From the NCBI GenBank assembly GCA_000993205.1, contig LBVU01000002.1, forward strand, positions 28,250-92,249: a DNA stretch of 64,000 nucleotides, given 5' to 3'. Positions 49,566-63,483 of this stretch are shown piece by piece. Within the stretch, counting starts at the first letter, position 1. The number at the start of each line of letters is the position of its first letter. The notes beneath the pieces are model-generated. The model was not told where the DNA came from. It worked only from the letters and a program-made list of their open reading frames with translations, and searched no databases. The translations under genes were made by a program, and so were the position numbers. The stretch is from Candidatus Woesebacteria bacterium GW2011_GWB1_39_10. Lineage in GTDB: Bacteria > Patescibacteriota > Microgenomatia > UBA8517.

Positions 49566-50042
49566 ATGGATTTTAAAGCATTCATCGAAATTCCACTCAA
49601 CTCAAATATTAAATATGAGGTGGATGAAGAAACGGGAGAGCTTACAGTAGACAGATTCCTGCACACCGCAATGAGCTACCCCTTCAACTACGGTTATGTT
49701 AAGGGCACCAAAGGAAAAGACGACGATCCACTTGATGTTTGTATCTTTTCCTCCCTTCCCGTTACCCCCGGAGTAGTTATGAAATGCCATGCTATCGGAC
49801 TTTTGGAGATGGAAGACGAAGGCGGAATAGATACCAAAATTTTTGCCGTTCCCGATAAAAAAATAGATCCAATATTCGGAGTTTGGACAAATATTAAAGA
49901 TGTGCCGGAAATAATTTTATTAAGAACCAAACACTTCTTTGACCATATGAAAGAGCTTGAACCGGGTAAATGGGTTAAAACAGGAGAATTCAAAGATGCT
50001 CCTGAAGCTGAAAAAGAAATCGATGCTTCCAAAAATAAATAG
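49566..50042 (+). CDS. ppa: Inorganic pyrophosphatase (family I).
   Basis: It has PFNYGYVKGT and DDDPLDVCIF (the DGDPLDVLV-type motif). The ORF-track TTG start is at 49548 and the likely ATG is at 49566. Confidence 0.85.
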   Translation: MDFKAFIEIPLNSNIKYEVDEETGELTVDRFLHTAMSYPFNYGYVKGTKGKDDDPLDVCIFSSLPVTPGVVMKCHAIGLLEMEDEGGIDTKIFAVPDKKIDPIFGVWTNIKDVPEIILLRTKHFFDHMKELEPGKWVKTGEFKDAPEAEKEIDASKNK

Positions 50043-50049
50043 CAGTTCT

Positions 50050-50826
50050 ATGAAGAAAATTTTATTGACTTTGTCAGTTTTTGTTTTGCTTCTCGTCGTT
50101 TTTTCCTCTCCCGTTTCTGCAAATCATTCGTGGGGTGGATATCATTGGGCAAGAACTGCAAACCCTTTTACCTTGAAACTGGGAGACAATCTTTCTCCAA
50201 ATTGGAAGCCATTTTTGGCAACGGCGTCTGCTGATTGGTCTACATCTACCATACTTGATACAACAATTGTCACAGGGCAAGGCGGCAAAAACTGTAAGGC
50301 GACTAACGGGAGGGTTGAGGTTTGCAACAGAAAATACGGAAACAACGGTTGGCTGGGAATTGCCCAAATATGGATTACCGGCGGAGTACATATAACTCAA
50401 GGGGTAACCAAAATGAATGATACCTATTTCGGTAAGCCTGCGTACAATACACCAGCCTGGAAACAAATGGTTATGTGTCAAGAAGTGGGACACACATTGG
50501 GCCTTGATCATCAGGATGAGATTTTTGACAACTCCAATCTTGGAACCTGTATGGATTACACAAGCGATCCAAGCACAAACCAGCATCCCAATCAGCATGA
50601 TTATGATGAGTTGGATACTATATATAGTCACCTGGACAGTTTCACCACGATTGGCCAGGCTTCCGGACAGGTTACCAGACAGCTTGGACAACTCGCAGCA
50701 AACCAAGATCTTAACAATCCCGGAGAGTGGGGTAGATCAATACGGGATAATGGCAAGGTTGCCATATTTGAACGCGATCTTGGCTTGGGAAATAAAGTCT
50801 TCACATTTGTCATTTGGGCCAAATAA
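50050..50826 (+). CDS. Secreted zinc-metalloprotease-like protein (metzincin-like).
   Basis: It has a signal peptide MKKILLTLSVFVLLLVVFSSPVSA and QEVGHTLGLDHQ (a HExxHxxGxxH-like motif with Q at the first position). Confidence 0.4.
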   Translation: MKKILLTLSVFVLLLVVFSSPVSANHSWGGYHWARTANPFTLKLGDNLSPNWKPFLATASADWSTSTILDTTIVTGQGGKNCKATNGRVEVCNRKYGNNGWLGIAQIWITGGVHITQGVTKMNDTYFGKPAYNTPAWKQMVMCQEVGHTLGLDHQDEIFDNSNLGTCMDYTSDPSTNQHPNQHDYDELDTIYSHLDSFTTIGQASGQVTRQLGQLAANQDLNNPGEWGRSIRDNGKVAIFERDLGLGNKVFTFVIWAK

Positions 50827-50866: not shown

Positions 50867-51478
50867 ATGCTTAAAATCATCTCCTGGTTATTAATTATTT
50901 TAGGGCTCGCTCTACTGATTTTTATTTTTGGTCCCGTTATTAAAGAAGAAACCAAATATAAACTTGGGCAAATTGCTAATGTTAAATATGTAATTGGTAC
51001 TGAACAGTTGGATACTTTTGAAAAACCGCTCACTCCTCCAAACACAGATTTCTCTGTAATTATCCCCAAAATTGGCGCCGTAGCCCCTGTTGTCGATAAT
51101 GTGGACGCTACAGACCCAAAACAATACCTTTCAGCTCTCAAAAAAGGTGTTGCCCATGCGACAGGAACTGGAATCCCAGATGAAATCGGAAATGTATACC
51201 TTTTTGCCCACTCAACGGATGCTTTCTGGAATGTTAGTTCATATAATGCCGTATTTTATCTAATAGGGAAACTTAAACCGGGAGATGAGATAGTTATTTA
51301 TTACCAAAACAGGTTAATAACATACCAAGTTTATGACAAGAAAGTAGTTAGTGCCGACTCGTCCCAATATTTGGGCACACTAACACCCGACGAAAAGACA
51401 TTAACACTCCAAACATGTTATCCGCCTGGAACAACTTTTGAAAGACTTATAGTACTGGCAAAGCAGACGAGCCCTTGA
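50867..51478 (+). CDS. Sortase (transpeptidase).
   Basis: It has an N-terminal TM, the His region VYLFAHST, the active-site LTLQTCYP (the TLxTC motif) and an Arg near the C-terminus. Confidence 0.75.
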   Translation: MLKIISWLLIILGLALLIFIFGPVIKEETKYKLGQIANVKYVIGTEQLDTFEKPLTPPNTDFSVIIPKIGAVAPVVDNVDATDPKQYLSALKKGVAHATGTGIPDEIGNVYLFAHSTDAFWNVSSYNAVFYLIGKLKPGDEIVIYYQNRLITYQVYDKKVVSADSSQYLGTLTPDEKTLTLQTCYPPGTTFERLIVLAKQTSP

Positions 51479-51526
51479 CATTGTGGTAACTGATAGTATA
51501 ATCACGACATAAAGATAAATATTGAT

Positions 51527-54500
51527 GTGAAAAAAACCTTATTTCAAAAAACAGCCTCATTCATTGCCACCATTGCGGTTTTAATTAATTCGTTTGGAGC
51601 CCCCCTGACAGTTATAGCTCAGGAAATTACCCCAAGTCCCACACCTGCTGAAACGAGTTCACCGACACCTGAGGCTACTGCTTCGACTGAGCTCACCGCT
51701 TCGCCTACTGCTCAGTCCGATGCAACACCCGCCGAAACTGCAAGTCCGACACCTGAAATTACCCCAACCCCGACTGATACAGTTACACCAGCCCCAACTG
51801 ATACTCCCATTGCAACACAAGCACCGGAAAGTAACCCTACGGTTCAAGGTCCTCCGGCTTCCGATCAACCAACTTCAAGCCCAACAGCAACCCCGATAGT
51901 GACACCTGCTCAGCCTGAAGTAGAGGGAAGTTTAACAACAGAGATAGTAGAAACAAATTTGTTCTCAGAAACACTTCAGGAAAATAGCTGGTTTAACCTT
52001 GTCACAGATAAACTTGATTATGCGCCCACTGAGGCCGCAGTAATTACCGGAACCGGTTTCGCGGCAGGGAAAACTTACAATCTAACGGTAAGTTCGGTAG
52101 ACGAACCGGCAACCACAACCACGGTTGAAGTAATCGCGGATCTAAACGGTTCATTTGCTTACGTTTACCAACTCGACGGCAACTACCGACCAAATTATTC
52201 GGTTGAAGTTAAAAGTGATGGAGTGATTGTTGCCTCAACGACCTTTACCGACTCGCCGGTTTCCGGCACCCTTCTAGACTCTGACGGAGCAAACGATGAA
52301 CCGGGACAAAAAGATTTAACCAAACTTTTTTTTGATTATACGAATATCCCCACCTCAATAAATATCGGGTGGGACTGGGACGACTCTGGTTTCTCTGGAG
52401 CAAACACGGGTGATGCCTGTGCATTATTTGACACAGACACTGATGGTTATGCCAATTATGCTCTTTGTGTTACTGTTGACAATGACCCGGCAACTTTTCA
52501 GACAACCAGTCTTTACTCCTGTAACGATACCCGTTCTGACAGATGTCCAAGCGAGGCGCCAATTTCCCTGTTCACTTCTACTTGCGGTGCCAATGTTCAG
52601 GCAACTGACCCCTTCCCCGGACCTCCAGCAGCTCAACAGGGCGATGATTATCCAAACGACTCTGTAGCCAGCTGCACCGCTCAATTATCCGAAGTGGGAG
52701 GAGCTTCGTCAAAACTACTTGATGTTTGTTCTTTTCCATCGTCAATTTCCCATTCTGACCCTTCGGACTGTATAGTTGCCTCGACAGCTTCTCAAACAGG
52801 ATTTTTGGAGGTTAAAAAAGTATTAGACCCCACAAGCGATACCGGGAAATTTGATTTGCAAATTGACGGAACTACTTACGCTTTTGACGCAACTCATAAC
52901 GGTACAACCGGAGAAAAAATTGTGGATGCTGACAGCCACACTGTCAGTGAAACCGCCGGAACAGGTACGACATTAAGCAATTACACTTCGTCAGTTGTTT
53001 GTAGAGATACCAATGGCACCGGGAGCGTAGTCTCAACTACGGGAAGTGCCCCTTCTTGGACAGTTGGCGTTGGAAACGGAGACGATATTGTCTGCACTAT
53101 CACAAACACTCTCCGGCAAGCACATCTTATCGTTGTAAAACATGTAATTAACGATAATGGAGGCACTGCGGTCGCCGGCAATTTTACTTTAGATTCAGGA
53201 GGAACCAACGACACCCCGGATAATTTTGCCGGAGTTGAATCACCCGGAACCGACGTCACACTTGATGCAGGTTCATATAACGTGACCGAGTCCGGCCCAG
53301 GTGGATACTCTGCAAACTATTCAGCAGATTGTTCCGGATCGATTTCGGCCGGACAAACAAAAACCTGTACAGTAACAAACGATGACCAAGCTGCAACCTT
53401 ACATGTTATTAAAGTAGTAACAAACGATAACGGTGGAACAAAAACATTTACTGATTTTTCATTCCAAGTAAATGGGGGTGGAGCAACCGCCTTTGAAGCA
53501 GATGGACAAAACGATCTTACCGTAAACGCAGGAACATATAGTGTGACAGAACCTGGAGTTGCAGGTTATTCTACAACTTACGATAACTGTTCAAACCTCG
53601 TTATTTCAAATGGGGGAAGTGCCACCTGTACTATTACCAACGATGATATTCAACCCAAACTCACACTTACAAAAATTGTAACAAACGACAATGGGGGGAA
53701 TGCGGTAGTTAACGATTTTCCGCTATTTGTAGGAGCAACCGGAGTTACAAGTGGTGTTCAAAACGGATTTGATGTCGGTAGTTATACCGCTTCTGAAACA
53801 AATCTTACAGGTTACACTGCAGGTTCATGGGGAGGGGACTGTGCAACTGATGGTTCAATTACGCTCGCTGCAGGAGATGTAAAGGCTTGCAGCATTACCA
53901 ACAACGACCAAGCTGCACACATTGTCTTGATTAAAAATGTCACAAATGACAATGGAGGTTCAGCAGGCGCAAACGATTTTGGGTTGACTGTTGGTAGTTC
54001 TTCTGTCACTTCGAGTAGTACAACTGATGTAAATTCTAACGTATCAACTACGTTAAACGAGACAGGTCTGGCCGGATATGATTTTGTTTCAATTACAGGA
54101 GACGCAAAATGTCCGGCTGTCTTGGGTGGAACGGTAACACTTAATGAAGGGGAAACCGTAACGTGTACCATAACGAATGATGATATTGCCCCAACACTTA
54201 AGCTTACAAAAAGCGTCACCAACGACAATGGTGGAACAGCAGTAGCCGGGAGTTGGACACTTGGAGCGGATGGTGATAGCGGATTCCAAGATTTGGGTGA
54301 TTCAACAACTTTCCATACAGTAAAAGCGGGTGTGAGTTACGCGCTTTCCGAGTCCGGATTAGCAGGGTATGCTCAAGACGGAAATTGGTCGTGTGATGGT
54401 GGTGATCAGAACGGGAGCAACATAGCTCTCGGGTTAGCGCAAGACATAATTTGTACGGTTACAAACAATGACATCGCCCCATCGCTTACATTAATCAAAG

Positions 54501-57500
54501 CTTTGGTGACCAACAATGGTGGAAACGACACGGAGTCAGACTGGACTTTGACTGCTTCCGGTCCAACCGGCTTCAGCGGAGTTGGGTCATCTATCAGTAA
54601 TGGTGCGTCTTTTTATACCGGAACTTACGACCTTTCCGAGTCGGGTCCCGGAGGATACATAGCCAGTAACTGGGTTTGTACAGGCGGAACACAAAACGAC
54701 GGCAATACCATAACTTTAAGTTTGGGGCAGTCCGCTACTTGTACCATTACCAACGATGATGTTCCTGCCAGTATTACACTCACTAAAGTGGTCCAAAACA
54801 ATTTTGGTGGAACAGCCGGAGTAGACGATTTCGGTCTATCGATAGGCGGAACGTCAGTCTCTTCCGGTCAAACATTAAGTGTCAATTCCAATAGTTCTTA
54901 TACCCTTAATGAAGCGGGATTGTCTGGGTATTCATTCGTTTCCCTAACAGGCGACGATCTTTGTCCGGACGTACTTGGCGGAACGGTTACTCTTGATGAA
55001 GGGGGAACTATCTCTTGTATAATCACAAACAGTGACGTTCAACCACAGCTGACAGTCATAAAACATGTAATAAATGATAATGGCGGAAGTTCTTTAGCCG
55101 GAGCCTTTACAATAAATGTAACAGGCACAAGTGTTTCAACCACCTCCTTCGGCGGATCAGAATCCGGAACGACAGTAACTTTAAATGCCGGTTCATATAC
55201 TGTCGACGAAGATCTGTTTGCGGGGTACTCAAAAACCCTTGGCGCAGACTGTTTTGGAACAATTGCGGTCGGCGAACACAAAACCTGTACTATTACCAAC
55301 AACGATATTGCTCCAACACTTACATACGTTAAATCAGTAACTAATAATTATGGTGGAACTCTTGGTGCAACTGATTTTCCATTATTCATAAATGGAAGTC
55401 AGGTCATAACTGGCACTCCAAATACTTTATTAGCCAATTACTTATACACTCTTACAGAAACTCAGCAAACTGGATATACCGGCGGTTATTTTACAGGTGA
55501 TTGCTCAGCCGATGGATCAATTGTTCTTTCAGTTGGGGACAATAAAACGTGTTATATAAGTAATACCGACGTTCAACCAAAACTCACAATTACCAAGGTT
55601 GTAATTAATGATGATGGTGGTACAAAAGAGATTACCGATTTTCCTCTTTTTGTAAACTCAACTAGTGTAAAAAGCGGTGTACAAAATGGATTCAACGCTG
55701 ATAGCTACACTGTTAGTGAGACAGGTATCTCAGGATATACATCCACAATCTCAGGGGACTGTACAGCAAACGGGTCAGTAACATTGGCTGTCGGGGATGT
55801 GAAATCTTGCGTCATTACCAACGACGATATTGCTCCTAGATTAACATTGGTAAAAACAGTGGTAAACGACAATGGCGGTGACAAGGTTGTTTCAGATTTT
55901 ATACTTAAAATAAACGACACATCTGTTATAAGCGGTGAAGAAAACATACTTTCTGCTGGAACTTATACAGCAAGTGAGATTGAACTGCCCGGGTATGCTG
56001 CAACTGTTTGGGGCGGGGACTGCAACAGAGACGGAAGCATTACTTTAAACCCCGGAGACAATAAGTCCTGCACAATCACAAACGATGATCAACCGGCAAC
56101 ACTACGTGTAGTAAAAGTTATTGATCCTGGAAATACAGGAGCAACTGAAAGTTTCGGTGATTTCTGGTTCGAGGTAAACGGGGGTGGAACATCCGCCTTT
56201 GAAGCAGACGGACAAAACGACCTGACCGTTGATGCGGGAACTTACAATGTTACAGAGAAGGGAGTTACCGGTTATTCAACTTCTTACGACAACTGTTCAG
56301 ACGTTGCTATTCCGAACGGAGGAGAGGCAACTTGTACTGTTACAAATACGGCGATTGCGCCAACACTGACTGTTATCAAAATCGTCGAGAACGGAAATAC
56401 AGGAGCGACTTTCAGCTCTTCCGATTTTCAAATGAAAGTTGACGACGCAAACGTTCCTCAAAACTCTGCACAAGATGAAACCATCGGCTCTCATACAGTA
56501 AGCGAATTGGGCCCTTCCGGATACACTTCGGTGTTTAGTGGAGATTGCAACACTGACGGAAATGTGACACTTGCCCTCGCCGATGACAAAACTTGCACTA
56601 TTACCAACACTGCTATTGACCCAACGCTAACTTTGATCAAAACGGTTGTAAACGATAACGGTGGACAAAAAGAAGTATCAGATTTTCCTCTTTTCATAGA
56701 TGACAACGGTGTAACGAGTGGTGAATCCCGTGTTCAAACAGTCGGTACGCACACAGCAACTGAGACCTCTGACGCAGGGTACACGGCTTCAGTTTGGGGT
56801 GGGGACTGTGCAGAGAACGGAACCATTACTCTTTCACTGGGCGACGATAAAATCTGTACAATTACCAACGATGATAATCCGGGAACCCTTATAGTCAAAA
56901 AAGTAATCGACGGTGGAGAAGCCAGTTTTCAAGATTTCTCATTCCAAATCAACGGGGGCGAACCAGTCGGTTTTGACTCGGAGGACGGTCAGAATGAGGA
57001 AACCGTAGACGCAGGGACTTATTCCGTTACAGAACCAAAGGTTGAAAATTATGTCACTTCCTACGACAACTGTACCAGAATTCAGATTGCAAACGGGGAG
57101 AGTGCAACTTGTACCATAACCAATATTTGGCAAAATCCTCAAATTTCAATCATTAAAGAGAACAACGCCGGCGGTGGGGTTGGCGCAGGGTCAACCGTAA
57201 TCTACACCATAAAGGTATCAAACAACGGTAATGTAAATTTTGATAACGTACTTGTAACCGACTTCTTACCCGGAGGATTTACGTATGTAGTCGGATCAAC
57301 GACAGGGGCAACATTTATCAACGTCCTTGGTTCAAAATTGACTTGGAATATTGACAACCTGGCACCGGAAGAAACTGCCACCATCACATATCAGGTTACG
57401 ACAAATTCCGCTCTAACCGACGGTGATTATAAAAACTTTGCAACCTGCCAAGCTACTTACAATGAAGAAGAAACAATAAGCTGCGACCAGGTAAATTCAA

Positions 57501-57679
57501 CTGTAAAAATCGGCCACGGAATTAGTTACGGCGGAAATTTGCAGGGTCAGGTCTTGGGAGCATCCACAGAACTTCCCGCAACAGGGAGCCCGACATTACT
57601 TTTGATCCTATCTTTAGGGTTACTCGGAACCGGATTATACTTAAAAGGTTACGACAAAAAACGAAATGTTAAAAATTAA
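51527..57679 (+). CDS. Giant (2050 aa) cell-surface protein with ~17 tandem ~95-aa repeat domains and a C-terminal LPATG cell-wall sorting signal; GTG start.
   Basis: It has a signal peptide and a Thr/Pro-rich N-terminal linker. The repeats read ...TNDD(I/Q)AP(T/K)LT(L/V)IK.V.NDNGG.... The C-terminus is GQVLGASTELPATGSPTLLLILSLGLLGTGLYLKGYDKKRNVKN, that is LPXTG followed by a TM helix and a basic tail. Confidence 0.8.
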   Translation: MKKTLFQKTASFIATIAVLINSFGAPLTVIAQEITPSPTPAETSSPTPEATASTELTASPTAQSDATPAETASPTPEITPTPTDTVTPAPTDTPIATQAPESNPTVQGPPASDQPTSSPTATPIVTPAQPEVEGSLTTEIVETNLFSETLQENSWFNLVTDKLDYAPTEAAVITGTGFAAGKTYNLTVSSVDEPATTTTVEVIADLNGSFAYVYQLDGNYRPNYSVEVKSDGVIVASTTFTDSPVSGTLLDSDGANDEPGQKDLTKLFFDYTNIPTSINIGWDWDDSGFSGANTGDACALFDTDTDGYANYALCVTVDNDPATFQTTSLYSCNDTRSDRCPSEAPISLFTSTCGANVQATDPFPGPPAAQQGDDYPNDSVASCTAQLSEVGGASSKLLDVCSFPSSISHSDPSDCIVASTASQTGFLEVKKVLDPTSDTGKFDLQIDGTTYAFDATHNGTTGEKIVDADSHTVSETAGTGTTLSNYTSSVVCRDTNGTGSVVSTTGSAPSWTVGVGNGDDIVCTITNTLRQAHLIVVKHVINDNGGTAVAGNFTLDSGGTNDTPDNFAGVESPGTDVTLDAGSYNVTESGPGGYSANYSADCSGSISAGQTKTCTVTNDDQAATLHVIKVVTNDNGGTKTFTDFSFQVNGGGATAFEADGQNDLTVNAGTYSVTEPGVAGYSTTYDNCSNLVISNGGSATCTITNDDIQPKLTLTKIVTNDNGGNAVVNDFPLFVGATGVTSGVQNGFDVGSYTASETNLTGYTAGSWGGDCATDGSITLAAGDVKACSITNNDQAAHIVLIKNVTNDNGGSAGANDFGLTVGSSSVTSSSTTDVNSNVSTTLNETGLAGYDFVSITGDAKCPAVLGGTVTLNEGETVTCTITNDDIAPTLKLTKSVTNDNGGTAVAGSWTLGADGDSGFQDLGDSTTFHTVKAGVSYALSESGLAGYAQDGNWSCDGGDQNGSNIALGLAQDIICTVTNNDIAPSLTLIKALVTNNGGNDTESDWTLTASGPTGFSGVGSSISNGASFYTGTYDLSESGPGGYIASNWVCTGGTQNDGNTITLSLGQSATCTITNDDVPASITLTKVVQNNFGGTAGVDDFGLSIGGTSVSSGQTLSVNSNSSYTLNEAGLSGYSFVSLTGDDLCPDVLGGTVTLDEGGTISCIITNSDVQPQLTVIKHVINDNGGSSLAGAFTINVTGTSVSTTSFGGSESGTTVTLNAGSYTVDEDLFAGYSKTLGADCFGTIAVGEHKTCTITNNDIAPTLTYVKSVTNNYGGTLGATDFPLFINGSQVITGTPNTLLANYLYTLTETQQTGYTGGYFTGDCSADGSIVLSVGDNKTCYISNTDVQPKLTITKVVINDDGGTKEITDFPLFVNSTSVKSGVQNGFNADSYTVSETGISGYTSTISGDCTANGSVTLAVGDVKSCVITNDDIAPRLTLVKTVVNDNGGDKVVSDFILKINDTSVISGEENILSAGTYTASEIELPGYAATVWGGDCNRDGSITLNPGDNKSCTITNDDQPATLRVVKVIDPGNTGATESFGDFWFEVNGGGTSAFEADGQNDLTVDAGTYNVTEKGVTGYSTSYDNCSDVAIPNGGEATCTVTNTAIAPTLTVIKIVENGNTGATFSSSDFQMKVDDANVPQNSAQDETIGSHTVSELGPSGYTSVFSGDCNTDGNVTLALADDKTCTITNTAIDPTLTLIKTVVNDNGGQKEVSDFPLFIDDNGVTSGESRVQTVGTHTATETSDAGYTASVWGGDCAENGTITLSLGDDKICTITNDDNPGTLIVKKVIDGGEASFQDFSFQINGGEPVGFDSEDGQNEETVDAGTYSVTEPKVENYVTSYDNCTRIQIANGESATCTITNIWQNPQISIIKENNAGGGVGAGSTVIYTIKVSNNGNVNFDNVLVTDFLPGGFTYVVGSTTGATFINVLGSKLTWNIDNLAPEETATITYQVTTNSALTDGDYKNFATCQATYNEEETISCDQVNSTVKIGHGISYGGNLQGQVLGASTELPATGSPTLLLILSLGLLGTGLYLKGYDKKRNVKN

Positions 57680-58565
57680 ATCAATCACCGGCTTATTTAT
57701 TTGCTCATTCGCTTATTTACTTATTTGCTTATTCGGTGTGAGGCCGGCCTACGCCTCAGTTCTTTCAATCCAAACTCTGCCTTCCTATATAAACACCAAC
57801 AACTTCAAACTTTCCTGTACTAGTGATGGGGGAACGTTCCAATTTGAGGTTAGTGTGCACGGCGGAGCATTTACGACTTTTGGACCGGTAATCAACACAA
57901 GTACGGAGCCTTGCATAGTTCAAGTCGATTCATCTATTGTAAACAGCCAGACCGACTATACATTCAGGATTGGTGGATTCACAACCTCAACTATTTATGA
58001 CACAAACGGTCCCGCCGCACCATCAGGATACTACAAAGAGGGTTTGAGTAATGGCTTCAAAATTCACTGGACCAACCCAAGCGACAGTGATTTTTCTAAA
58101 GTAAAAATCTACCGCGGTGAAACTGCTGACTTTTCTGCCGACAGTTCACATGAGATTACAACCCAACCCGGTGGAGCGGGGAGCCTAATGACTTACGACG
58201 ATATATTCGCAGTGGATTCTTCCAAAACTTATTTTTACGATCTAAGAGCAATTGACTATGCGGGAAATTCCTCTGATCTTGTGGGTGATGGATCTTCCAC
58301 AAGCTCAACAACAGTTACTACAGCCAGTCCTAAGGCCGGAACAGACAAAGTGACACAATTGCCCAAGGGAAACGGCGGTAGTGTCTTAGGAACCGAGACA
58401 AATGGCACTCCAACTCCTTCCGCCAGTCCCACTGAGATAGGAGGGCCAGTTAGCACCAATCCCGGAATCATGAAATGGATTCTGACACACAAAAAGATAT
58501 CTTTAGGGGTTGCTTTCGGACTTATAATAATAAGCTACCTGCTCTTCAGAAGGAAAAAATCTTAA
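57666..58565 (+). CDS. Surface protein with a signal peptide and a C-terminal TM anchor.
   Basis: It has an N-terminal signal, and a C-terminal hydrophobic helix plus RRKKS tail preceded by a Ser/Thr/Pro-rich stalk. Confidence 0.45.
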   Translation: MLKIKSITGLFICSFAYLLICLFGVRPAYASVLSIQTLPSYINTNNFKLSCTSDGGTFQFEVSVHGGAFTTFGPVINTSTEPCIVQVDSSIVNSQTDYTFRIGGFTTSTIYDTNGPAAPSGYYKEGLSNGFKIHWTNPSDSDFSKVKIYRGETADFSADSSHEITTQPGGAGSLMTYDDIFAVDSSKTYFYDLRAIDYAGNSSDLVGDGSSTSSTTVTTASPKAGTDKVTQLPKGNGGSVLGTETNGTPTPSASPTEIGGPVSTNPGIMKWILTHKKISLGVAFGLIIISYLLFRRKKS

Positions 58566-58629
58566 CCTATAATTTTGCCTCTTGACAAGCAGAGAAAGTA
58601 CCGCTATTATCCCATCATAGTTTTATATT

Positions 58630-59373
58630 ATGACTAAGTTTAACTCAGGCAAAGCATCTATTTTAGCTCTCACTTCCGCTTTTGCGGTCGCGGCTTTTTT
58701 TCTCGGAAAATCTTTTACTTTGATTCTAGCCTCTCCTGCCGGTGACGTTCCAAAAGCCTACTGTCATGCAGCTGGACTGACAGGAACCACCCACTTCAAT
58801 TATCACTACAATAAAGCTTGGACGGCCCACTTTTATGACAACGGAAGTCCTAAAGCAGGACACGAAGACGACTTTTACACATTAATCGGCGATAGAGATT
58901 GTGACGGTCAAGTTGACTCAACACCAACCCCTACCCCAACAGATTGTGACGGAGATTGCCCAACTGCAACCCCCGAACCAACCGATGACGTCTGTCCAAA
59001 TATCGAGGGTGTTCAAGACTCTGTCCCTGAAGGATATTTTGTAAATAATGATGATAACTGTGTCGAAGGGGAAGAACCAACTCCCGAGCCTACACCAACA
59101 CCAAATCCTGACGTTTGTGCAAATATCGACGGTGTTCAAACCGGTGTACCTAGCGGGTTACACATGGATGCCGGAAACGTCAACTGTGTTTCGTTCTCTG
59201 ATTCAAATCCTCCCGAAGTTCCATATACACCTCAGGGTCAAGTCCTTGGAGCCTCTACAATGGCAGGGACAGGGTCATTTGCTGAAAACTTATATATGGG
59301 TATAATGGGTGTAGGTGCAATTCTCACTCTTAAAGGCGCAAAGAACTTCAAAAAAGCTTTCAAAAAAGCTTAA
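58630..59373 (+). CDS. Surface protein and candidate sortase substrate with a variant sorting signal.
   Basis: It has an N-terminal TM/signal and a TP-rich linker. The C-terminus GQVLGASTMAGTGSFAENLYMGIMGVGAILTLKGAKNFKK parallels the giant protein's GQVLGAST-ELPATG-S, followed by a hydrophobic helix and a basic tail. Confidence 0.45.
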   Translation: MTKFNSGKASILALTSAFAVAAFFLGKSFTLILASPAGDVPKAYCHAAGLTGTTHFNYHYNKAWTAHFYDNGSPKAGHEDDFYTLIGDRDCDGQVDSTPTPTPTDCDGDCPTATPEPTDDVCPNIEGVQDSVPEGYFVNNDDNCVEGEEPTPEPTPTPNPDVCANIDGVQTGVPSGLHMDAGNVNCVSFSDSNPPEVPYTPQGQVLGASTMAGTGSFAENLYMGIMGVGAILTLKGAKNFKKAFKKA

Positions 59374-59911
59374 GATCTTCCGTGGTCCGCTTTTTTTAAC
59401 CTTTCTAGGATTGTCCATATTTACCTTTGGAATTTACAACTATTATAAAGTCCGAATACTTTCGTTTGACTCTGTTCCTCCGGAAGCTAATAAATCTATT
59501 GAAAATGTTGACTCTCCTGTAGAAATAATTATTCCCTCAATCAAGATTGACCTCAAAGTCGAGCCGGGACAGATTAAAGACGGTGTCTGGCAAATCTCAG
59601 GGTCTTCAGCTACCTTTCTTACAACCTCAGCCGCCCCGAGGACGGAAGGCAATATGGTGATCTATGGTCACAACAAAAAAGTTATTTTTGGCAATCTGCC
59701 TTATTTAAGCCTGGGACAAAGAATTGTCATCAAGACAAAAAGTGGAAAAATCTATAATTATGTGGTCGATCAAAAATACTTTGTTGGCCCCGATAGGGTA
59801 GACTTGGTTTCTCCGTCCGATAAAGAGGAGCTTACTATATATACCTGCTACGGACTTTTTGATGGTCAGCGCGCAGTAATCAAAGCCAGGCCACTCAAGG
59901 ACAGTCCTTGA
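59315..59911 (+). CDS. Sortase (second copy).
   Basis: It has an N-terminal TM, MVIYGHN (His), LTIYTCY (the TLxTC motif) and a conserved Arg. Its stop codon lies inside a REP-like palindrome. Confidence 0.7.
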   Translation: MQFSLLKAQRTSKKLSKKLKIFRGPLFLTFLGLSIFTFGIYNYYKVRILSFDSVPPEANKSIENVDSPVEIIIPSIKIDLKVEPGQIKDGVWQISGSSATFLTTSAAPRTEGNMVIYGHNKKVIFGNLPYLSLGQRIVIKTKSGKIYNYVVDQKYFVGPDRVDLVSPSDKEELTIYTCYGLFDGQRAVIKARPLKDSP

Positions 59912-59950: not shown

Positions 59951-60628
59951 TTACTCTAAGATAAGGTCTCCCAGAAATATTGCACTATCCTTCTTGTAAT
60001 CTTCAACAAAACTTTTATACGAATTCACTTTTTTAAATTCCGGTAAAACTTTATTGTTAAAGAACGAGAGAACTGTTTCCGGCTTAATCCAAGGTGTTTG
60101 TCTCTTTCCTAAATATTCAGGGTAAGAGGAATAAGCGCTTAGCAAATCGTCTGTATACTCTCTTGGATTTAGATGGATGTATCTACTTAAATGTAGTAGG
60201 TATTCTTCGCTTGCAACCAATACTGCCTTATATCGACCTTGAAATAGCGATCCAACACGATCATATTTTTTATTGAAATACATTGAGTATCTAGTCATAA
60301 GAGATCTCATTAGTCCTTGAATCGAGTCGAAATCCTTTTGTTTAATCAAAAGGTGAAAATGGTTGGGCATTAGACAATAAGCAATTAGGTCAATTTTTTC
60401 AAAATAACTTTTTACAGGCCTTCTTATGCTCTGCAAGGACAGTCCTTGCATAATATATTTCGTTCTCAGATCTTGTTCCTCAAGCGGGGAAAAAGCCTCT
60501 TTTATATAACGTAAAAAAACTTTGTAATCCTGACTATCTTCAAAAATTATCCTTTTTTCAACCCCGCGGTTATAAATATGATAAAAGCCTTTTTCGACAT
60601 AAATTTTCAAGGAATTTCTGGAAGGCAT
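59951..60628 (-). CDS. HUH Y1 tyrosine transposase (IS200/IS605 TnpA-like / REP-associated tyrosine transposase, RAYT-like).
   Basis: It has the HUH motif LMPNHFHLLI and catalytic-Tyr regions LSRYIHLNP and YKAVLV. It is flanked by REP-like palindromes on both sides. Confidence 0.65.
   Translation of the reverse strand: MPSRNSLKIYVEKGFYHIYNRGVEKRIIFEDSQDYKVFLRYIKEAFSPLEEQDLRTKYIMQGLSLQSIRRPVKSYFEKIDLIAYCLMPNHFHLLIKQKDFDSIQGLMRSLMTRYSMYFNKKYDRVGSLFQGRYKAVLVASEEYLLHLSRYIHLNPREYTDDLLSAYSSYPEYLGKRQTPWIKPETVLSFFNNKVLPEFKKVNSYKSFVEDYKKDSAIFLGDLILE
60431..60450. repeat. REP-like palindrome copy 3, inside the Y1 transposase coding sequence.
   Basis: The sequence is CTGCAAGGACAGTCCTTGCA, with an 8-bp stem. 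Confidence 0.5.
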
Positions 60629-60849: not shown

Positions 60850-63483
60850 ATGGATATCGGTAAAATTCAACAAACAGAGATAACTACAGAGCTTTCCAAG
60901 TCATATTTGGATTACGCAATGAGCGTTATAGTGGCCCGAGCCTTACCCGACGTACGGGACGGACTTAAACCAGTTCACAGGAGAATTTTATACGCAATGC
61001 ATTTGATGGGGCTTCATTTTGTAGGCAGCTCCACAACAAAATCCGCCAAAGTCGTCGGAGAAGTTTTGGGTAAATATCATCCGCACGGAGACATGGCTGT
61101 TTACGATGCCATGGTCCGCTTGGCTCAAATCTTTTCAATGCGCTATCCGTTGGTCCATGGACAGGGAAACTTTGGGTCTGTTGACGGCGACCCGCCCGCG
61201 GCCATGAGGTATACCGAAGTTAAACTTGCAAAAATCGCAGACATGATGCTTGCAGATATGGAGAAAGAAACAGTAGACTTCACGGACAATTTTGACGCAA
61301 CGCTTAAAGAACCGGTTTTTCTTCCCGCAGTTTTACCAAATTTACTTCTTATGGGTAGCGAAGGTATTGCAGTCGGAATGGCTACAAAAATTCCTCCACA
61401 TAATTTAACTGAATTGGTTGATGGCATAACCGCTATGATCAAAAAAGGCAAAGTTATAACTGAACAAAAGGCGCAGGAAGAGCAAACCGATTTTGTTATT
61501 AAAAAGATCAATCTGGTAGCTTCAGGTGAGTCTAAAGCCTTAACTGAGGCCGAAGTTAACCCAACAGCAGTTTCTTTTGAAAGCGAAATAGATATTGATG
61601 AACTAACGGATATTATTCCCGGCCCGGACTTTCCTACAGGGGGAGCAATTTATGACGCCAACGGACTTAAAGAACTTTACGCGACAGGCCGTGGCAAAAT
61701 AGTTGTCCGTGGTATTGCTGAAATTGTAGAGGGTGCAAAAGGCAAACAACAAATTATAATCAGCGAACTTCCGTACCAGGTAAATAAGAGTGAACTTGTA
61801 GCCAAAATCGCCGAACTTGTAAAAGATAAAAAAGTGGTAGGAATTAGCGACCTTCGGGACGAAAGTGACAAAGACGGAATGAGAGTCGCGATTGATCTTA
61901 AACGCGACGCAAAACCCAAGTCGGTTTTGAATAATATTTTCAAACACACCAGGCTTCAAAGCAGCTTCCCGGCAAATTTTGTTGCCCTGGTAGATGGCAC
62001 CCCACACACATTAAATCTTAAAACAATTCTTGTTGAGTACGTTAAGCATAGACAAAGAGTTGTTATAAGACGCACAATCTTTGAGTTAACAGAAGCCAAA
62101 AAACGAGCTCATATTTTAGAAGGGCTTAAAATCGCGCTCGATAATTTGGATGCCGTAATCAAAACCATCAGAGAGAGTAAAACTCAGGAGGATGCCAAGA
62201 AAAACTTAATTGAAAGATTTAAGTTGTCCGAAATTCAAGCAACTGCAATTCTTGATATGCAGCTTAGAAGATTGGCAGCACTTGAACGAGAAAAAATTGA
62301 AAAAGAATACGCAGAAATCAAGAAATTGATTGATCAGCTTATTGCGATTTTGAAAGATCCTAAACAGGTTTTGAATATCATTGTTAAGGAATTAGGGGAG
62401 TTAAAAGAAAAATACGGTGACAAAAGAAGAACTAAAATTTATAAAAACCCGCTCGGGGAAATCAGCGAAGAAGATTTGGTGGCCAAGGAGGAAACATTAA
62501 TCACCGTTACAAAAACAGGATACGTTAAACGCCTTTCTGCAACAAGTTACCGCGCACAACGCAGGGGAGGAAAGGGTGTAATCGGGATGGCAACTAAAGA
62601 AGAGGACGAGATTGAACACATCTTATCCGCTACAACTCATGATACAATTCTTTTCTTTACCAATAAAGGCCGTGTTTTCGGGCTAAAAGCATGGGAAATT
62701 CCGGAAAGCAGCAGGCAGGCAAAGGGCCAGGCCCTTGTCAATTTGTTGAATCTTGAACAAGGCGAAGAAATAAAATCCATTCTTCCGCTTTCGAAAGAAC
62801 TCGGCATTAAGAATTTGGTAATGGCTACTAAAAACGGACTTATTAAAAAGACAGGTATCGACGAATTTGAAAATTTGAGATCATCGGGTCTTATTGCAAT
62901 CAAGCTTAGAGACAATGACATGCTTATTTCTGTTCACCCGACAACTGGCGACGATCACATTATTCTTCTTACCCGAAATGCCAAGTCAATTAGATTTCCT
63001 GAGACAAATGCACGTCCAATGGGGCGCGCCACAACGGGAGTCACCGGCATAAAAATGGACACAGGGGATGAACTGATTGGAATGGAAGTATTTCCTGCAA
63101 AAGAAAATATCCCAACCGACAAAAGGAAAAAGTTCTACCGCGATATTTTAACCATTGCCGAACACGGACTTGGAAAACGCACCCCAATTCATCTTTTCCC
63201 GGTACAAAAAAGGTCGGGTAAGGGAGTTAAAGCAGCTGTAGTTTCAGCAAAAATCGGGAATTTGAAAACCGCCGCGATGGTTACCGAAAAATATGATCAG
63301 GTGATTATTACCAGCAAAATGGGTCAGGTCATTAAACTACCTTTGAAAAATATTCCTCAACTTGGCAGGGCCACTCAAGGAGTCATCTTGATGAGATTTG
63401 CTGACAAAGGAGATAGTGTCGCCGCCGCGGCCGTTTTGGAAAAAGGGGTAGACGAAGAAGATGAAGAAAATATCGAAAAGTAG
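60850..63483 (+). CDS. gyrA: DNA gyrase subunit A.
   Basis: It has [29 protein letters not shown] with the catalytic Tyr region, beta-pinwheel C-terminal repeats and an acidic tail. It is 877 aa. Confidence 0.95.

Follow-up and report, generated by a model that had tools for sequence, protein, structure and literature searches.

The DNA considered here is a stretch of 64,000 nucleotides (64 kb, hereafter the window) from contig LBVU01000002.1 of Candidatus Woesebacteria bacterium GW2011_GWB1_39_10, a Microgenomates genome of the Candidate Phyla Radiation (CPR, or Patescibacteria), and has a G+C content of about 40%. It carries a surface-display locus that we read as two independent sortase-substrate cassettes, one comprising a sortase gene (srt1), the gene of a giant LPATG surface protein and a third gene, p299, and the other a small gene, p247, followed by a second sortase gene, srt2, with each sortase serving its own sorting signal. 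We put the probability of this reading at roughly 0.7. The sortase module is real, and its most interesting part is the second cassette, apparently an undescribed dedicated sortase-substrate pair using the signal Met-Ala-x-Thr-Gly (MAxTG); the giant protein is a further member of a familiar kind. An earlier note, made from the letters of the window, had placed four open reading frames (ORFs) here on the forward strand, and these lie exactly as it described; it had overlooked p299, the 59-nt overlap between p247 and srt2, and the shortness and unusual sequence conservation of the hydrophobic stretch that follows MAGTG in p247. The genes of the locus, in window positions, are as follows.

50867..51478, + strand: srt1, a sortase of 203 aa (Pfam PF04203)
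51527..57679, + strand: the giant LPATG surface protein, 2050 aa (Pfam SpaA_2/SpaA_3/DUF11)
57666..58565, + strand: p299, an ORF of 299 aa between the giant gene and p247, Fn3-like
58630..59373, + strand: p247, the putative MAxTG substrate, 247 aa, without Pfam or NCBIfam match
59315..59911, + strand: srt2, a sortase of 198 aa with a GTG start (Pfam PF04203)

The sequence of p247 is also found exactly on contigs of Candidatus Woesebacteria bacterium GW2011_GWA2_40_7 (GCA_000994565.1) and in several groundwater metagenome assemblies. The protein ends in GQVLGASTMAGTG-SFAENLYMGIMGVGAILTLKGAKNFKKAFKKA, which divides into GQVLGASTMAGTG-SFAENLYMGIMGVGAILTLKG-AKNFKKAFKKA, and its sorting signal (59236-59370) consists of the octapeptide GQVLGAST, the pentapeptide MAGTG (59260-59274), the stretch SFAENLYMGIMGVGAILTLKG and a Lys-rich tail. 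That p247 and the giant protein each carry a C-terminal motif, a hydrophobic stretch and a basic tail, and that their different pentapeptides, MAGTG and LPATG, follow the same octapeptide, had been recognized in the earlier note and holds on careful translation, the local peptides being GASTMAGTGSF in p247 and GASTELPATGSP in the giant protein. The two copies of GQVLGAST are separated by 5 synonymous differences in 24 nt, which rules out recent gene conversion or copying of DNA as the source of the shared octapeptide and argues that it has been kept by selection at the protein level. A six-frame scan of the whole window for [LM][PA]xTG followed by a hydrophobic segment and a basic tail returned no protein besides these two.

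Among homologues of p247 (161 matches) the tail is the constant element. The pentapeptide has the form [MLV]Ax[TA]G at the end of 110 of the 120 homologues listed, with Met first in 101 and Leu in 8 of those 110; across 109 tails its Ala and Gly are invariant and its Thr is present in 88%. VLGAST precedes it in 89/110 tails, with QVLGAST duplicated in 43/110, and it is followed by SF.E.LY.AIM.LGG, a stretch unusually conserved in sequence, and a Lys-rich end. A profile of the 37-residue tail matched 260 clusters at E<=1e-3 among 1.84 billion (1.84e9) representatives, and in all 150 listed of the 260, which are proteins of 42-504 aa, the profile matches at the C-terminal end or close to it. Many of the p247 homologues have nothing but the tail in common with it, and their precomputed Pfam domains include fn3, TSP_3, PG_binding_1, Ice_binding and Big_7. 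Where homologues do align over their full length, pairwise identity is 0.50 in the signal peptide, 0.25 in the middle (lengths 108-264) and 0.62 in the tail. In p247 itself a conserved signal peptide (MTKFNSGKASILALT; family motif M.KFN.GKAS.LALT) leads into a variable passenger, rich in Cys and His, with two CxNI(E/D)GVQ..VP.G modules. The whole protein has no match in Pfam or NCBIfam, and the tail alone has none in NCBIfam at E up to 10, TIGR01167 included. Among MAxTG passengers more widely, a module CxN(I/L)(D/E)G(I/V)Q..(V/L)P.G.H.D..G..C is frequent, and some carry a His/Cys motif resembling TICHATGS..NPY...GH..H..D; neither has a Pfam match.

Both flanking ORFs are sortases, as the earlier note had proposed. 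Against PF04203 (cut-off 26.6 bits) srt1 scores 82.8 bits (E 2.3e-23) and srt2 73.4 bits (E 1.8e-20), and in each the catalytic His, Cys and Arg are present and conserved across 121 homologues. In srt1, whose N-terminal transmembrane (TM) helix spans residues 1-29, the motif TLQTC lies at 51404-51418 and the triad is H115 (121/121), C184 (114/121) and R193 (118/121). In srt2, a Lys-rich N-terminus, a TM helix and a near-invariant juxtamembrane segment NYY(K/R)VRILSF precede the catalytic domain, TIYTC lies at 59834-59848, and H119, C178 and R186 are each conserved in 121/121. The two enzymes share 26% identity over 89 aa.

The association of srt2 with the MAxTG tail was surveyed from both sides, the resulting loci being cited below by number (L007 and the like). 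On the sortase side, an srt2 profile scan of species-representative genomes gave at least 23 loci; on the substrate side, metagenome contigs encoding VLGA[ST]TMA[GKS] gave 46 loci, 43 of them with a recognizable tail ORF and enough downstream sequence. All eight close orthologues of srt2 examined (in the window, L007-L011, L030 and L034) have an overlapping upstream gene whose product ends in VLGAST-[ML]Ax[TA]G-(S/N)F.E, and an srt2-type ORF starts between -73 and +22 nt from the substrate stop in 40 of the 43 metagenome loci (93%). Because this adjacency is found both from the substrate side, in 40/43 loci, and from the sortase side, in every close orthologue, the arrangement of the genes carries the signature of a dedicated enzyme-substrate pair. 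In the window the overlap covers 59315-59373 (59 nt), where KNFKKAFKKA and RTSKKLSKKLK are read in two frames from the same A-rich DNA, and most related substrate-srt2 loci show a similar overlap, of about 40-70 nt when measured in stop-to-stop ORF coordinates. Of the upstream substrates of the close orthologues, the one in L010 alone shares its passenger with p247 (350 bits), the others scoring 48-69 bits, and relatives of srt2 at 30-44% identity have upstream genes for LANTG, LASTG, LAETG, LADTG or LAATG proteins. The families of the second cassette are also of similar size (260 tail clusters, 161 p247 matches and 247 srt2 homologues), and 3790 homologues were found for srt1.

Substrate-sortase pairs may also stand in tandem, with differing pentapeptides, as in L009 and L032. 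In L009 (7603-10516) two sortases each have their own upstream substrate, the first ending in LATTG and the second in MAGAG; in L032/L033 (3657-7681) two substrates with Ice_binding domains are each followed by a sortase, and further tandem cassettes occur in L062 and L067. CPR-type srt2/substrate cassettes are found in L009, L012-L017, L019 and L021 on contigs of 35-47% G+C labelled uncultured Gammaproteobacteria, Pseudomonadales or Vitreimonas sp., and these third-party bins of metagenome-assembled genomes are probably mislabelled or chimeric.

The earlier note had treated the two sortases as bracketing a single module. The comparative loci speak for two separable cassettes, srt1 with the giant gene and p299, and a substrate gene with srt2. 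L056 and L057 repeat the whole series srt1-giant-p299-substrate-srt2, L010 runs p289-srt1-giant-substrate-srt2 (p289 being the gene upstream of srt1, described below), and L051, L071 and L042 have substrate-srt2-srt1-giant. In many loci substrate-srt2 is present without a recognizable giant or srt1 gene in the retained flank of up to 10 kb. Where the first cassette occurs, srt1 lies directly upstream of a giant LPxTG gene (the window, L010, L056, L057, L071 and L042) or about 1.3 kb upstream of it (L051), and we propose that it is the sortase, specific for LPxTG, that acts on the giant protein.

A division of labour in which srt1 would act on LPxTG and srt2 on MAxTG is suggested because each sortase adjoins a gene for the corresponding signal and because the two differ, Ala vs Leu, at one subsite residue. 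Class E sortases have a conserved Tyr in the beta3/beta4 loop (SrtE1 Y229) that has been proposed to select Ala at P3 (PMC5148588). At this site, as mapped by profile-sequence alignment to CpSrtD F92 and not by structure superposition, srt2 has Leu102 (Leu in 120/121), preceded by a near-invariant Phe101, in the place of SrtE1 Y229, CpSrtD F92 and SaSrtA A104; in srt1, Ala98 (Ala in 119/121) aligns with A104 of SaSrtA, an LPxTG-specific enzyme. Classification by hidden Markov models (HMMs), a check that the earlier note had suggested, placed both enzymes in PF04203 and neither in an NCBIfam class. For srt1 the best scores were 56 bits for SrtD (cut-off 140), 53.6 for class D (165) and 50 for classes C and E (160; class E 50.4), and srt2 fell far below all cut-offs, with 43 bits for SrtD (140), 36 for GN (158), 30 for F (166), 29 for C (160) and 28.4 for E (160); no class B match was listed for either sortase. 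An AlphaFold2 model of srt2 (mean predicted local distance difference test, pLDDT, 83) has the sortase fold, an eight-stranded beta-barrel, and matches 112 sortase chains in the PDB at E<=1e-3, the best being CpSrtD 4d70 (E 7.6e-11) with class C and A next; the fold is uninformative as to class, since structures of classes D, C and A match at similar E-values.

The idea of the earlier note that MAGTG might be a class E motif of the LAxTG type survives in part. A relation to LAxTG is borne out by the distant srt2 relatives with LA[NSEA]TG substrates upstream, but srt2 itself is not a class E enzyme, with 28 bits against the NF033747 cut-off of 160 and Leu102 in place of the hallmark Tyr; class E was likewise rejected for srt1 (50.4 bits vs 160, with Ala98 at the Tyr site). 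Compared with the class E enzymes SrtE1/E2 of Streptomyces coelicolor and their chaplin substrates (PMC5148588), the srt2 system is alike in the Ala at P3, the TG end of the signal, the fold, the His/Cys/Arg triad and the LAxTG substrates of its relatives, and differs in the Met at P4 of 101/110 tails. It differs also in organization, for class E sortases are housekeeping enzymes with many substrates, whereas srt2 appears to have essentially one, encoded next to it, in another phylum.

For the second cassette we envisage the following. srt2 would represent a separate sortase lineage specialized for VLGAST-[M/L]Ax[T/A]G-SFxExLYxAIMxLGG followed by a basic tail, and in each cassette its substrate would be essentially a single small protein, whose gene lies immediately upstream and is probably coupled to srt2 in translation through the overlap; cleavage would fall after the Thr of the pentapeptide. 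Signal peptide and sorting signal of the substrate would be held constant and its passenger left free to vary. A stronger form of this proposal, which we regard as possible yet rather doubtful, takes srt2 and the MAxTG tail to be a distinct sorting system restricted to the Microgenomates, deserving a sortase class of its own and a separate model for its C-terminal sorting domain. Enzyme and substrate would then be a one-to-one co-translated pair; recognition would extend beyond the pentapeptide to VLGAST and to a helix-helix contact between SFxExLYxAIMxLGG and the NYY(K/R)VRILSF segment of the sortase; and the cassette would display a passenger, swapped or diversified from lineage to lineage, that acts as a variable determinant of host or particle recognition. 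On these terms the duplicated QVLGAST may be a footprint of passenger exchange.

Among known systems, the two-cassette arrangement is nearest in logic to the class GN sortases with their single targets and to the sortase B operons, and nearest in signal chemistry to LAxTG. In class GN (marine proteobacterial; TIGR03784) one sortase likewise goes with one substrate gene directly upstream, and GN is among the better class matches of srt2; the srt2 profile scan recovered GN-type sortases with LAQTG targets in Photobacterium, as well as a locus with a MAQTG target in Bacterium sp. HQB-150 (L024), and the Grimontia loci L025 and L029 showed no target motif resembling LAxTG or MAxTG. The distance between the two systems is nevertheless considerable, srt2 scoring 36 bits vs 158 and GN targets being proteins of about 700-750 aa in Gram-negative bacteria, whereas the CPR substrates, of about 150-500 aa, combine the VLGAST pre-motif with a signal peptide and a post-TG helix that are both conserved. 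The SrtB-IsdC pair is encoded in a dedicated sortase B-substrate operon. Another such operon encodes SrtB-AbpA in oral streptococci (PMC4974636). These resemble the present case in that a general sortase is accompanied by another one, which has a genetically linked substrate and recognizes a signal other than LPxTG, but class B enzymes have an extra helix and signals of the NPxTN type, and their pairs are not known to show the overlap-coupled arrangement or a hypervariable passenger. Finally, YSIRK/GS-type signal peptides co-occur with LPXTG in staphylococci and streptococci, and there too a recognizable signal peptide is paired with a particular C-terminal signal on otherwise unrelated passengers; the M.KFN.GKAS.LALT motif of the p247 family is unrelated to YSIRK in sequence.

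Full-text literature searches found no description of the MAxTG signal or of VLGAST, and for sortases in CPR, Patescibacteria, Microgenomates or Woesebacteria they found generic mentions only. CPR bacteria are thought to live attached to other cells, and to our knowledge their surface proteins, type IV pili apart, are almost uncharacterized. The sortase family has been found to be near-universal in the Microgenomates (PMC6744442), an observation that the present reading would divide between a general LPxTG enzyme and a second, dedicated one. The signal of the second enzyme, VLGAST-[M/L]AxTG and then a conserved helix, marks one small and highly variable surface protein per cassette and could help annotators to recognize a group of CPR surface proteins for which there is at present no name. 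If a sortase specific for Met-Ala-x-Thr-Gly does operate without the class E Tyr, it would provide a natural test case for P4/P3 specificity, and an enzyme of the srt2 type could become an orthogonal tool in sortase-mediated ligation.

The clustering of two sortases with two or three secreted proteins, in an order of five genes that recurs in L056 and L057, invites comparison with the pilus islands of Gram-positive bacteria, where a class C sortase works alongside a housekeeping enzyme. By analogy, one sortase would join the giant and MAxTG proteins (Thr to Lys, as tip or basal subunits) and the other would anchor the product to the wall. The best fold matches of the SpaA_2 unit of the giant protein are pilins, the solved structures closest to srt1 by sequence are class C sortases (7d6p and 6ixz), and GQVLGAST is common to both substrates, all of which would suit such a system. 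We nevertheless consider it unlikely. The occurrence of substrate-srt2 in many loci without giant or srt1, and the rearranged order where both are present, fit poorly with one integrated machine. At the level of regular expressions, no [YFW]PK pilin motif is found in the giant protein, p299 or p247, and neither sortase has the DP[FWY] lid or a C-terminal TM segment of class C, their hydrophobic segments being N-terminal only; neither reaches the class C cut-off. The hypervariable passenger, moreover, makes a conserved acceptor Lys in the MAxTG protein improbable.

The tail of p247 might instead be an uncleaved membrane anchor, with srt2 acting on LPxTG proteins encoded elsewhere and adjacency reflecting co-regulation or a chaperone- or regulator-like partnership. 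Such a view would account for SFxExLYxAIMxLGG being far more conserved than usual sorting signals, as might be expected of a helix that persists and interacts, and for the failure of the tail in the curated LPXTG model; the locus also encodes p299, which by all appearances is simply anchored by a C-terminal TM helix. However, the pentapeptide keeps the sortase-type pattern of a hydrophobic residue followed by Ala-x-Thr-Gly, with the near-constancy of its Ala, Gly and Thr noted above, and in the relatives of srt2 it grades into LAxTG, an established sortase signal (PMC5148588). Its spacing from the hydrophobic segment and basic tail that follow is also the canonical one, and immediate adjacency in 93% of loci to a sortase whose catalytic residues are intact in 121/121 homologues is the known pattern of a dedicated pair. 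On balance we judge the uncleaved anchor decidedly improbable and prefer a tail that is a substrate of srt2.

The giant product of the first cassette has the architecture of a wall-anchored stalk adhesin. It may serve in adhesion or host attachment in an episymbiotic lifestyle, as the earlier note had supposed. Its parts are the following.

51527-51619, + strand: signal peptide
51620-51931, + strand: spacer of 104 residues, 70% Pro, Thr, Ser or Ala
51932-52903, + strand: Cys-rich head of about 320 residues, without family match
52904-53110, + strand: SpaA_3 (Pfam, 31 bits, cut-off 24)
53108-57124, + strand: 15 SpaA_2 units (Pfam, E 9e-147, 478.6 bits in total)
57134-57478, + strand: DUF11/CLIPPER (Pfam)
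57545-57676, + strand: sorting signal, with LPATG at 57572-57586

The protein ends in GQVLGASTELPATG-SPTLLLILSLGLLGTGLYLKGYDKKRNVKN, that is, GQVLGASTELPATG followed by a hydrophobic segment of 19 residues and KKRNVKN, and this tail passes the NCBIfam model TIGR01167 (LPXTG_anchor) marginally, with 16.6 bits for a cut-off of 15.9. The earlier count of about 17 near-identical repeats needs revision. As SpaA_2 units they number 15, each of 85-96 aa, on which Pfam and our own segmentation agree, and 17 is reached only as a count of immunoglobulin (Ig)-like modules, one SpaA_3, 15 SpaA_2 and one DUF11. Nor are they near-identical: pairwise identity among the SpaA_2 units averages 39% for the protein, with 70% as the maximum, and 49% for the DNA (range 41-71%), Tandem Repeats Finder reports no long-period array in the gene, and none of its DNA repeat pairs is longer than 266 nt (71% identity). 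The earlier suggestion of a contingency locus, in which near-identical repeats recombine to alter the length of the protein, finds some echo in the lengths of orthologous giants, which differ between species, but it is very improbable, for its premise of long, nearly identical DNA repeats is contradicted by units 41-71% identical in DNA with no exact repeat long enough for efficient homologous recombination, and the gene is the same in the NCBI and ENA assembly records, which may derive from one sample (0 differences in 6153 nt). Over evolutionary time the number of SpaA modules is taken to change, because giant orthologues of 1410, 1564, 1658, 1682, 1783 and >2531 aa are found in different species.

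Six residues, a Lys, a Glu, an Asn, a Tyr and two Cys, are the same in every SpaA_2 unit (15/15). In an AlphaFold2 model of one unit (pLDDT 95.1) the first strand contains the Lys, a central strand has the Glu at its end, and the Asn is in the last strand. The PDB folds that this model matches best are those of Streptococcus pyogenes T-antigen pilins, Cpa, GBS52, SdrD and an adhesin of Mobiluncus that is cross-linked by isopeptide and ester bonds. By sequence, no solved structure is related to the unit, the best, the T-antigen, being non-significant at E 0.55. An intramolecular Lys-Asn isopeptide bond is an established pattern of CnaB-type domains. By analogy with these domains, the pattern of invariant residues suggests that each SpaA_2 module holds a Lys-Asn isopeptide bond and, in addition, a disulfide. 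The giant protein resembles the CnaB/SpaA-type stalk adhesins and pilins of Gram-positive bacteria (T-antigen/Spy0128, Cpa, GBS52, SdrD B repeats) in its signal peptide, head, tandem Ig-like stalk and LPxTG anchor, as well as in its SpaA_2/SpaA_3 and fold matches and its invariant Lys/Glu/Asn pattern; it differs in the additional invariant Cys pair, in the lack of a pilin motif, in its CPR host and in an isopeptide bond that is so far only predicted. It is, by its sequence, an ordinary wall-anchored stalk adhesin and a candidate attachment factor. After its export by the Sec pathway, the hydrophobic segment and basic tail at its C-terminus would keep it in the membrane until srt1 cut it at LPAT|G, forming a thioester at Cys184 and passing the chain to an amine of a cell-wall precursor, the presumed acceptor. 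Anchored in the wall in this way, the protein would form a fibre in which 16 SpaA-type Ig-like modules and a DUF11 module carry the Cys-rich head, its SpaA_2 modules probably locked by the isopeptide bond, with the invariant Glu as catalyst, and the disulfide. The one local hint of a wall is a gene some 2 kb beyond the end of the window, on the same contig, for an L,D-transpeptidase with LysM (LysM-YkuD), which is consistent with peptidoglycan; no peptidoglycan synthesis genes were found in the first 17 kb of the window.

Several points weigh against the two-cassette reading. The assignment of sortases to signals depends on gene adjacency and one subsite residue, and cleavage at MAxTG is proposed from the genome of an uncultured organism. 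With about 15 uncharged residues, the hydrophobic stretch that follows MAGTG is short, and it contains a Glu; both features are atypical of a classical sorting signal. Pairing is not absolute, as L072, L073 and L078 encode MAxTG proteins, with a variant hydrophobic segment, and have no sortase in the 0.6-1 kb of downstream sequence available. The adjacency counts, too, were made on stop-to-stop ORFs with HMMs derived from these very families, only tails of the Met type were within reach of the metagenome scan, and some loci are redundant, L038, L039 and L030 being one sequence. On the side of the giant protein, the fold matches of the SpaA_2 model are weak (best E 5e-3, TM-scores 0.5-0.6).

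Between the two substrates lies p299, whose first 14 nt are shared with the end of the giant gene. It encodes a signal peptide, an Fn3-like ectodomain, a Ser/Thr-rich linker, the juxtamembrane motif KWILTHKKISLG (58473-58508), a TM helix and an RRKKS tail, without an xxxTG motif. Its best family match is a weak one of Fn3 type (NCBIfam MXAN_2561_fam, E 4.6e-6, below the cut-off), and homologues with the same C-terminal motif directly follow the giant gene in L007, L017, L051, L056 and L057. In its C-terminus (58370-58565) a VLG-type pre-motif, GSVLGTET, resembles those of both sortase substrates, and the conserved KWILTHKKISLG precedes the TM helix; this end may represent a further type of anchor signal, the third in the locus, or the degenerate form of one.

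The remaining features around the locus are these.

49996..50826, + strand: p289, a secreted protein with weak Met-zincin similarity, a conserved neighbour of the sortase locus for which membership is not claimed
59951-60628, - strand: a Y1_Tnp gene (PF01797), an IS200-like/REP-associated tyrosine transposase, between srt2 and gyrA
60850-63483: gyrA, a single ORF of 877 aa

p289 has about 276 aa and a metzincin-like motif, QEVGHTLGLDH, in which Gln takes the place of the first zinc-binding His, and its match to the Pfam Met-zincin family is weak (E 0.012, below the cut-off). Homologues adjoin sortase genes in L010 (569 bits), L034 (428) and L050 (384), and the protein may be a processing protease or merely a syntenic neighbour. 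The Y1_Tnp gene is present in all six contigs with the exact p247 sequence; in related genomes, the syntenic loci L030 and L034 lack it at this point. Lastly, gyrA forms one ORF of 877 aa in the window and in L002 and is split into 172 + 710 aa in GCA_000994565.1 (L001, 12221-14814), which is probably an assembly frameshift error.

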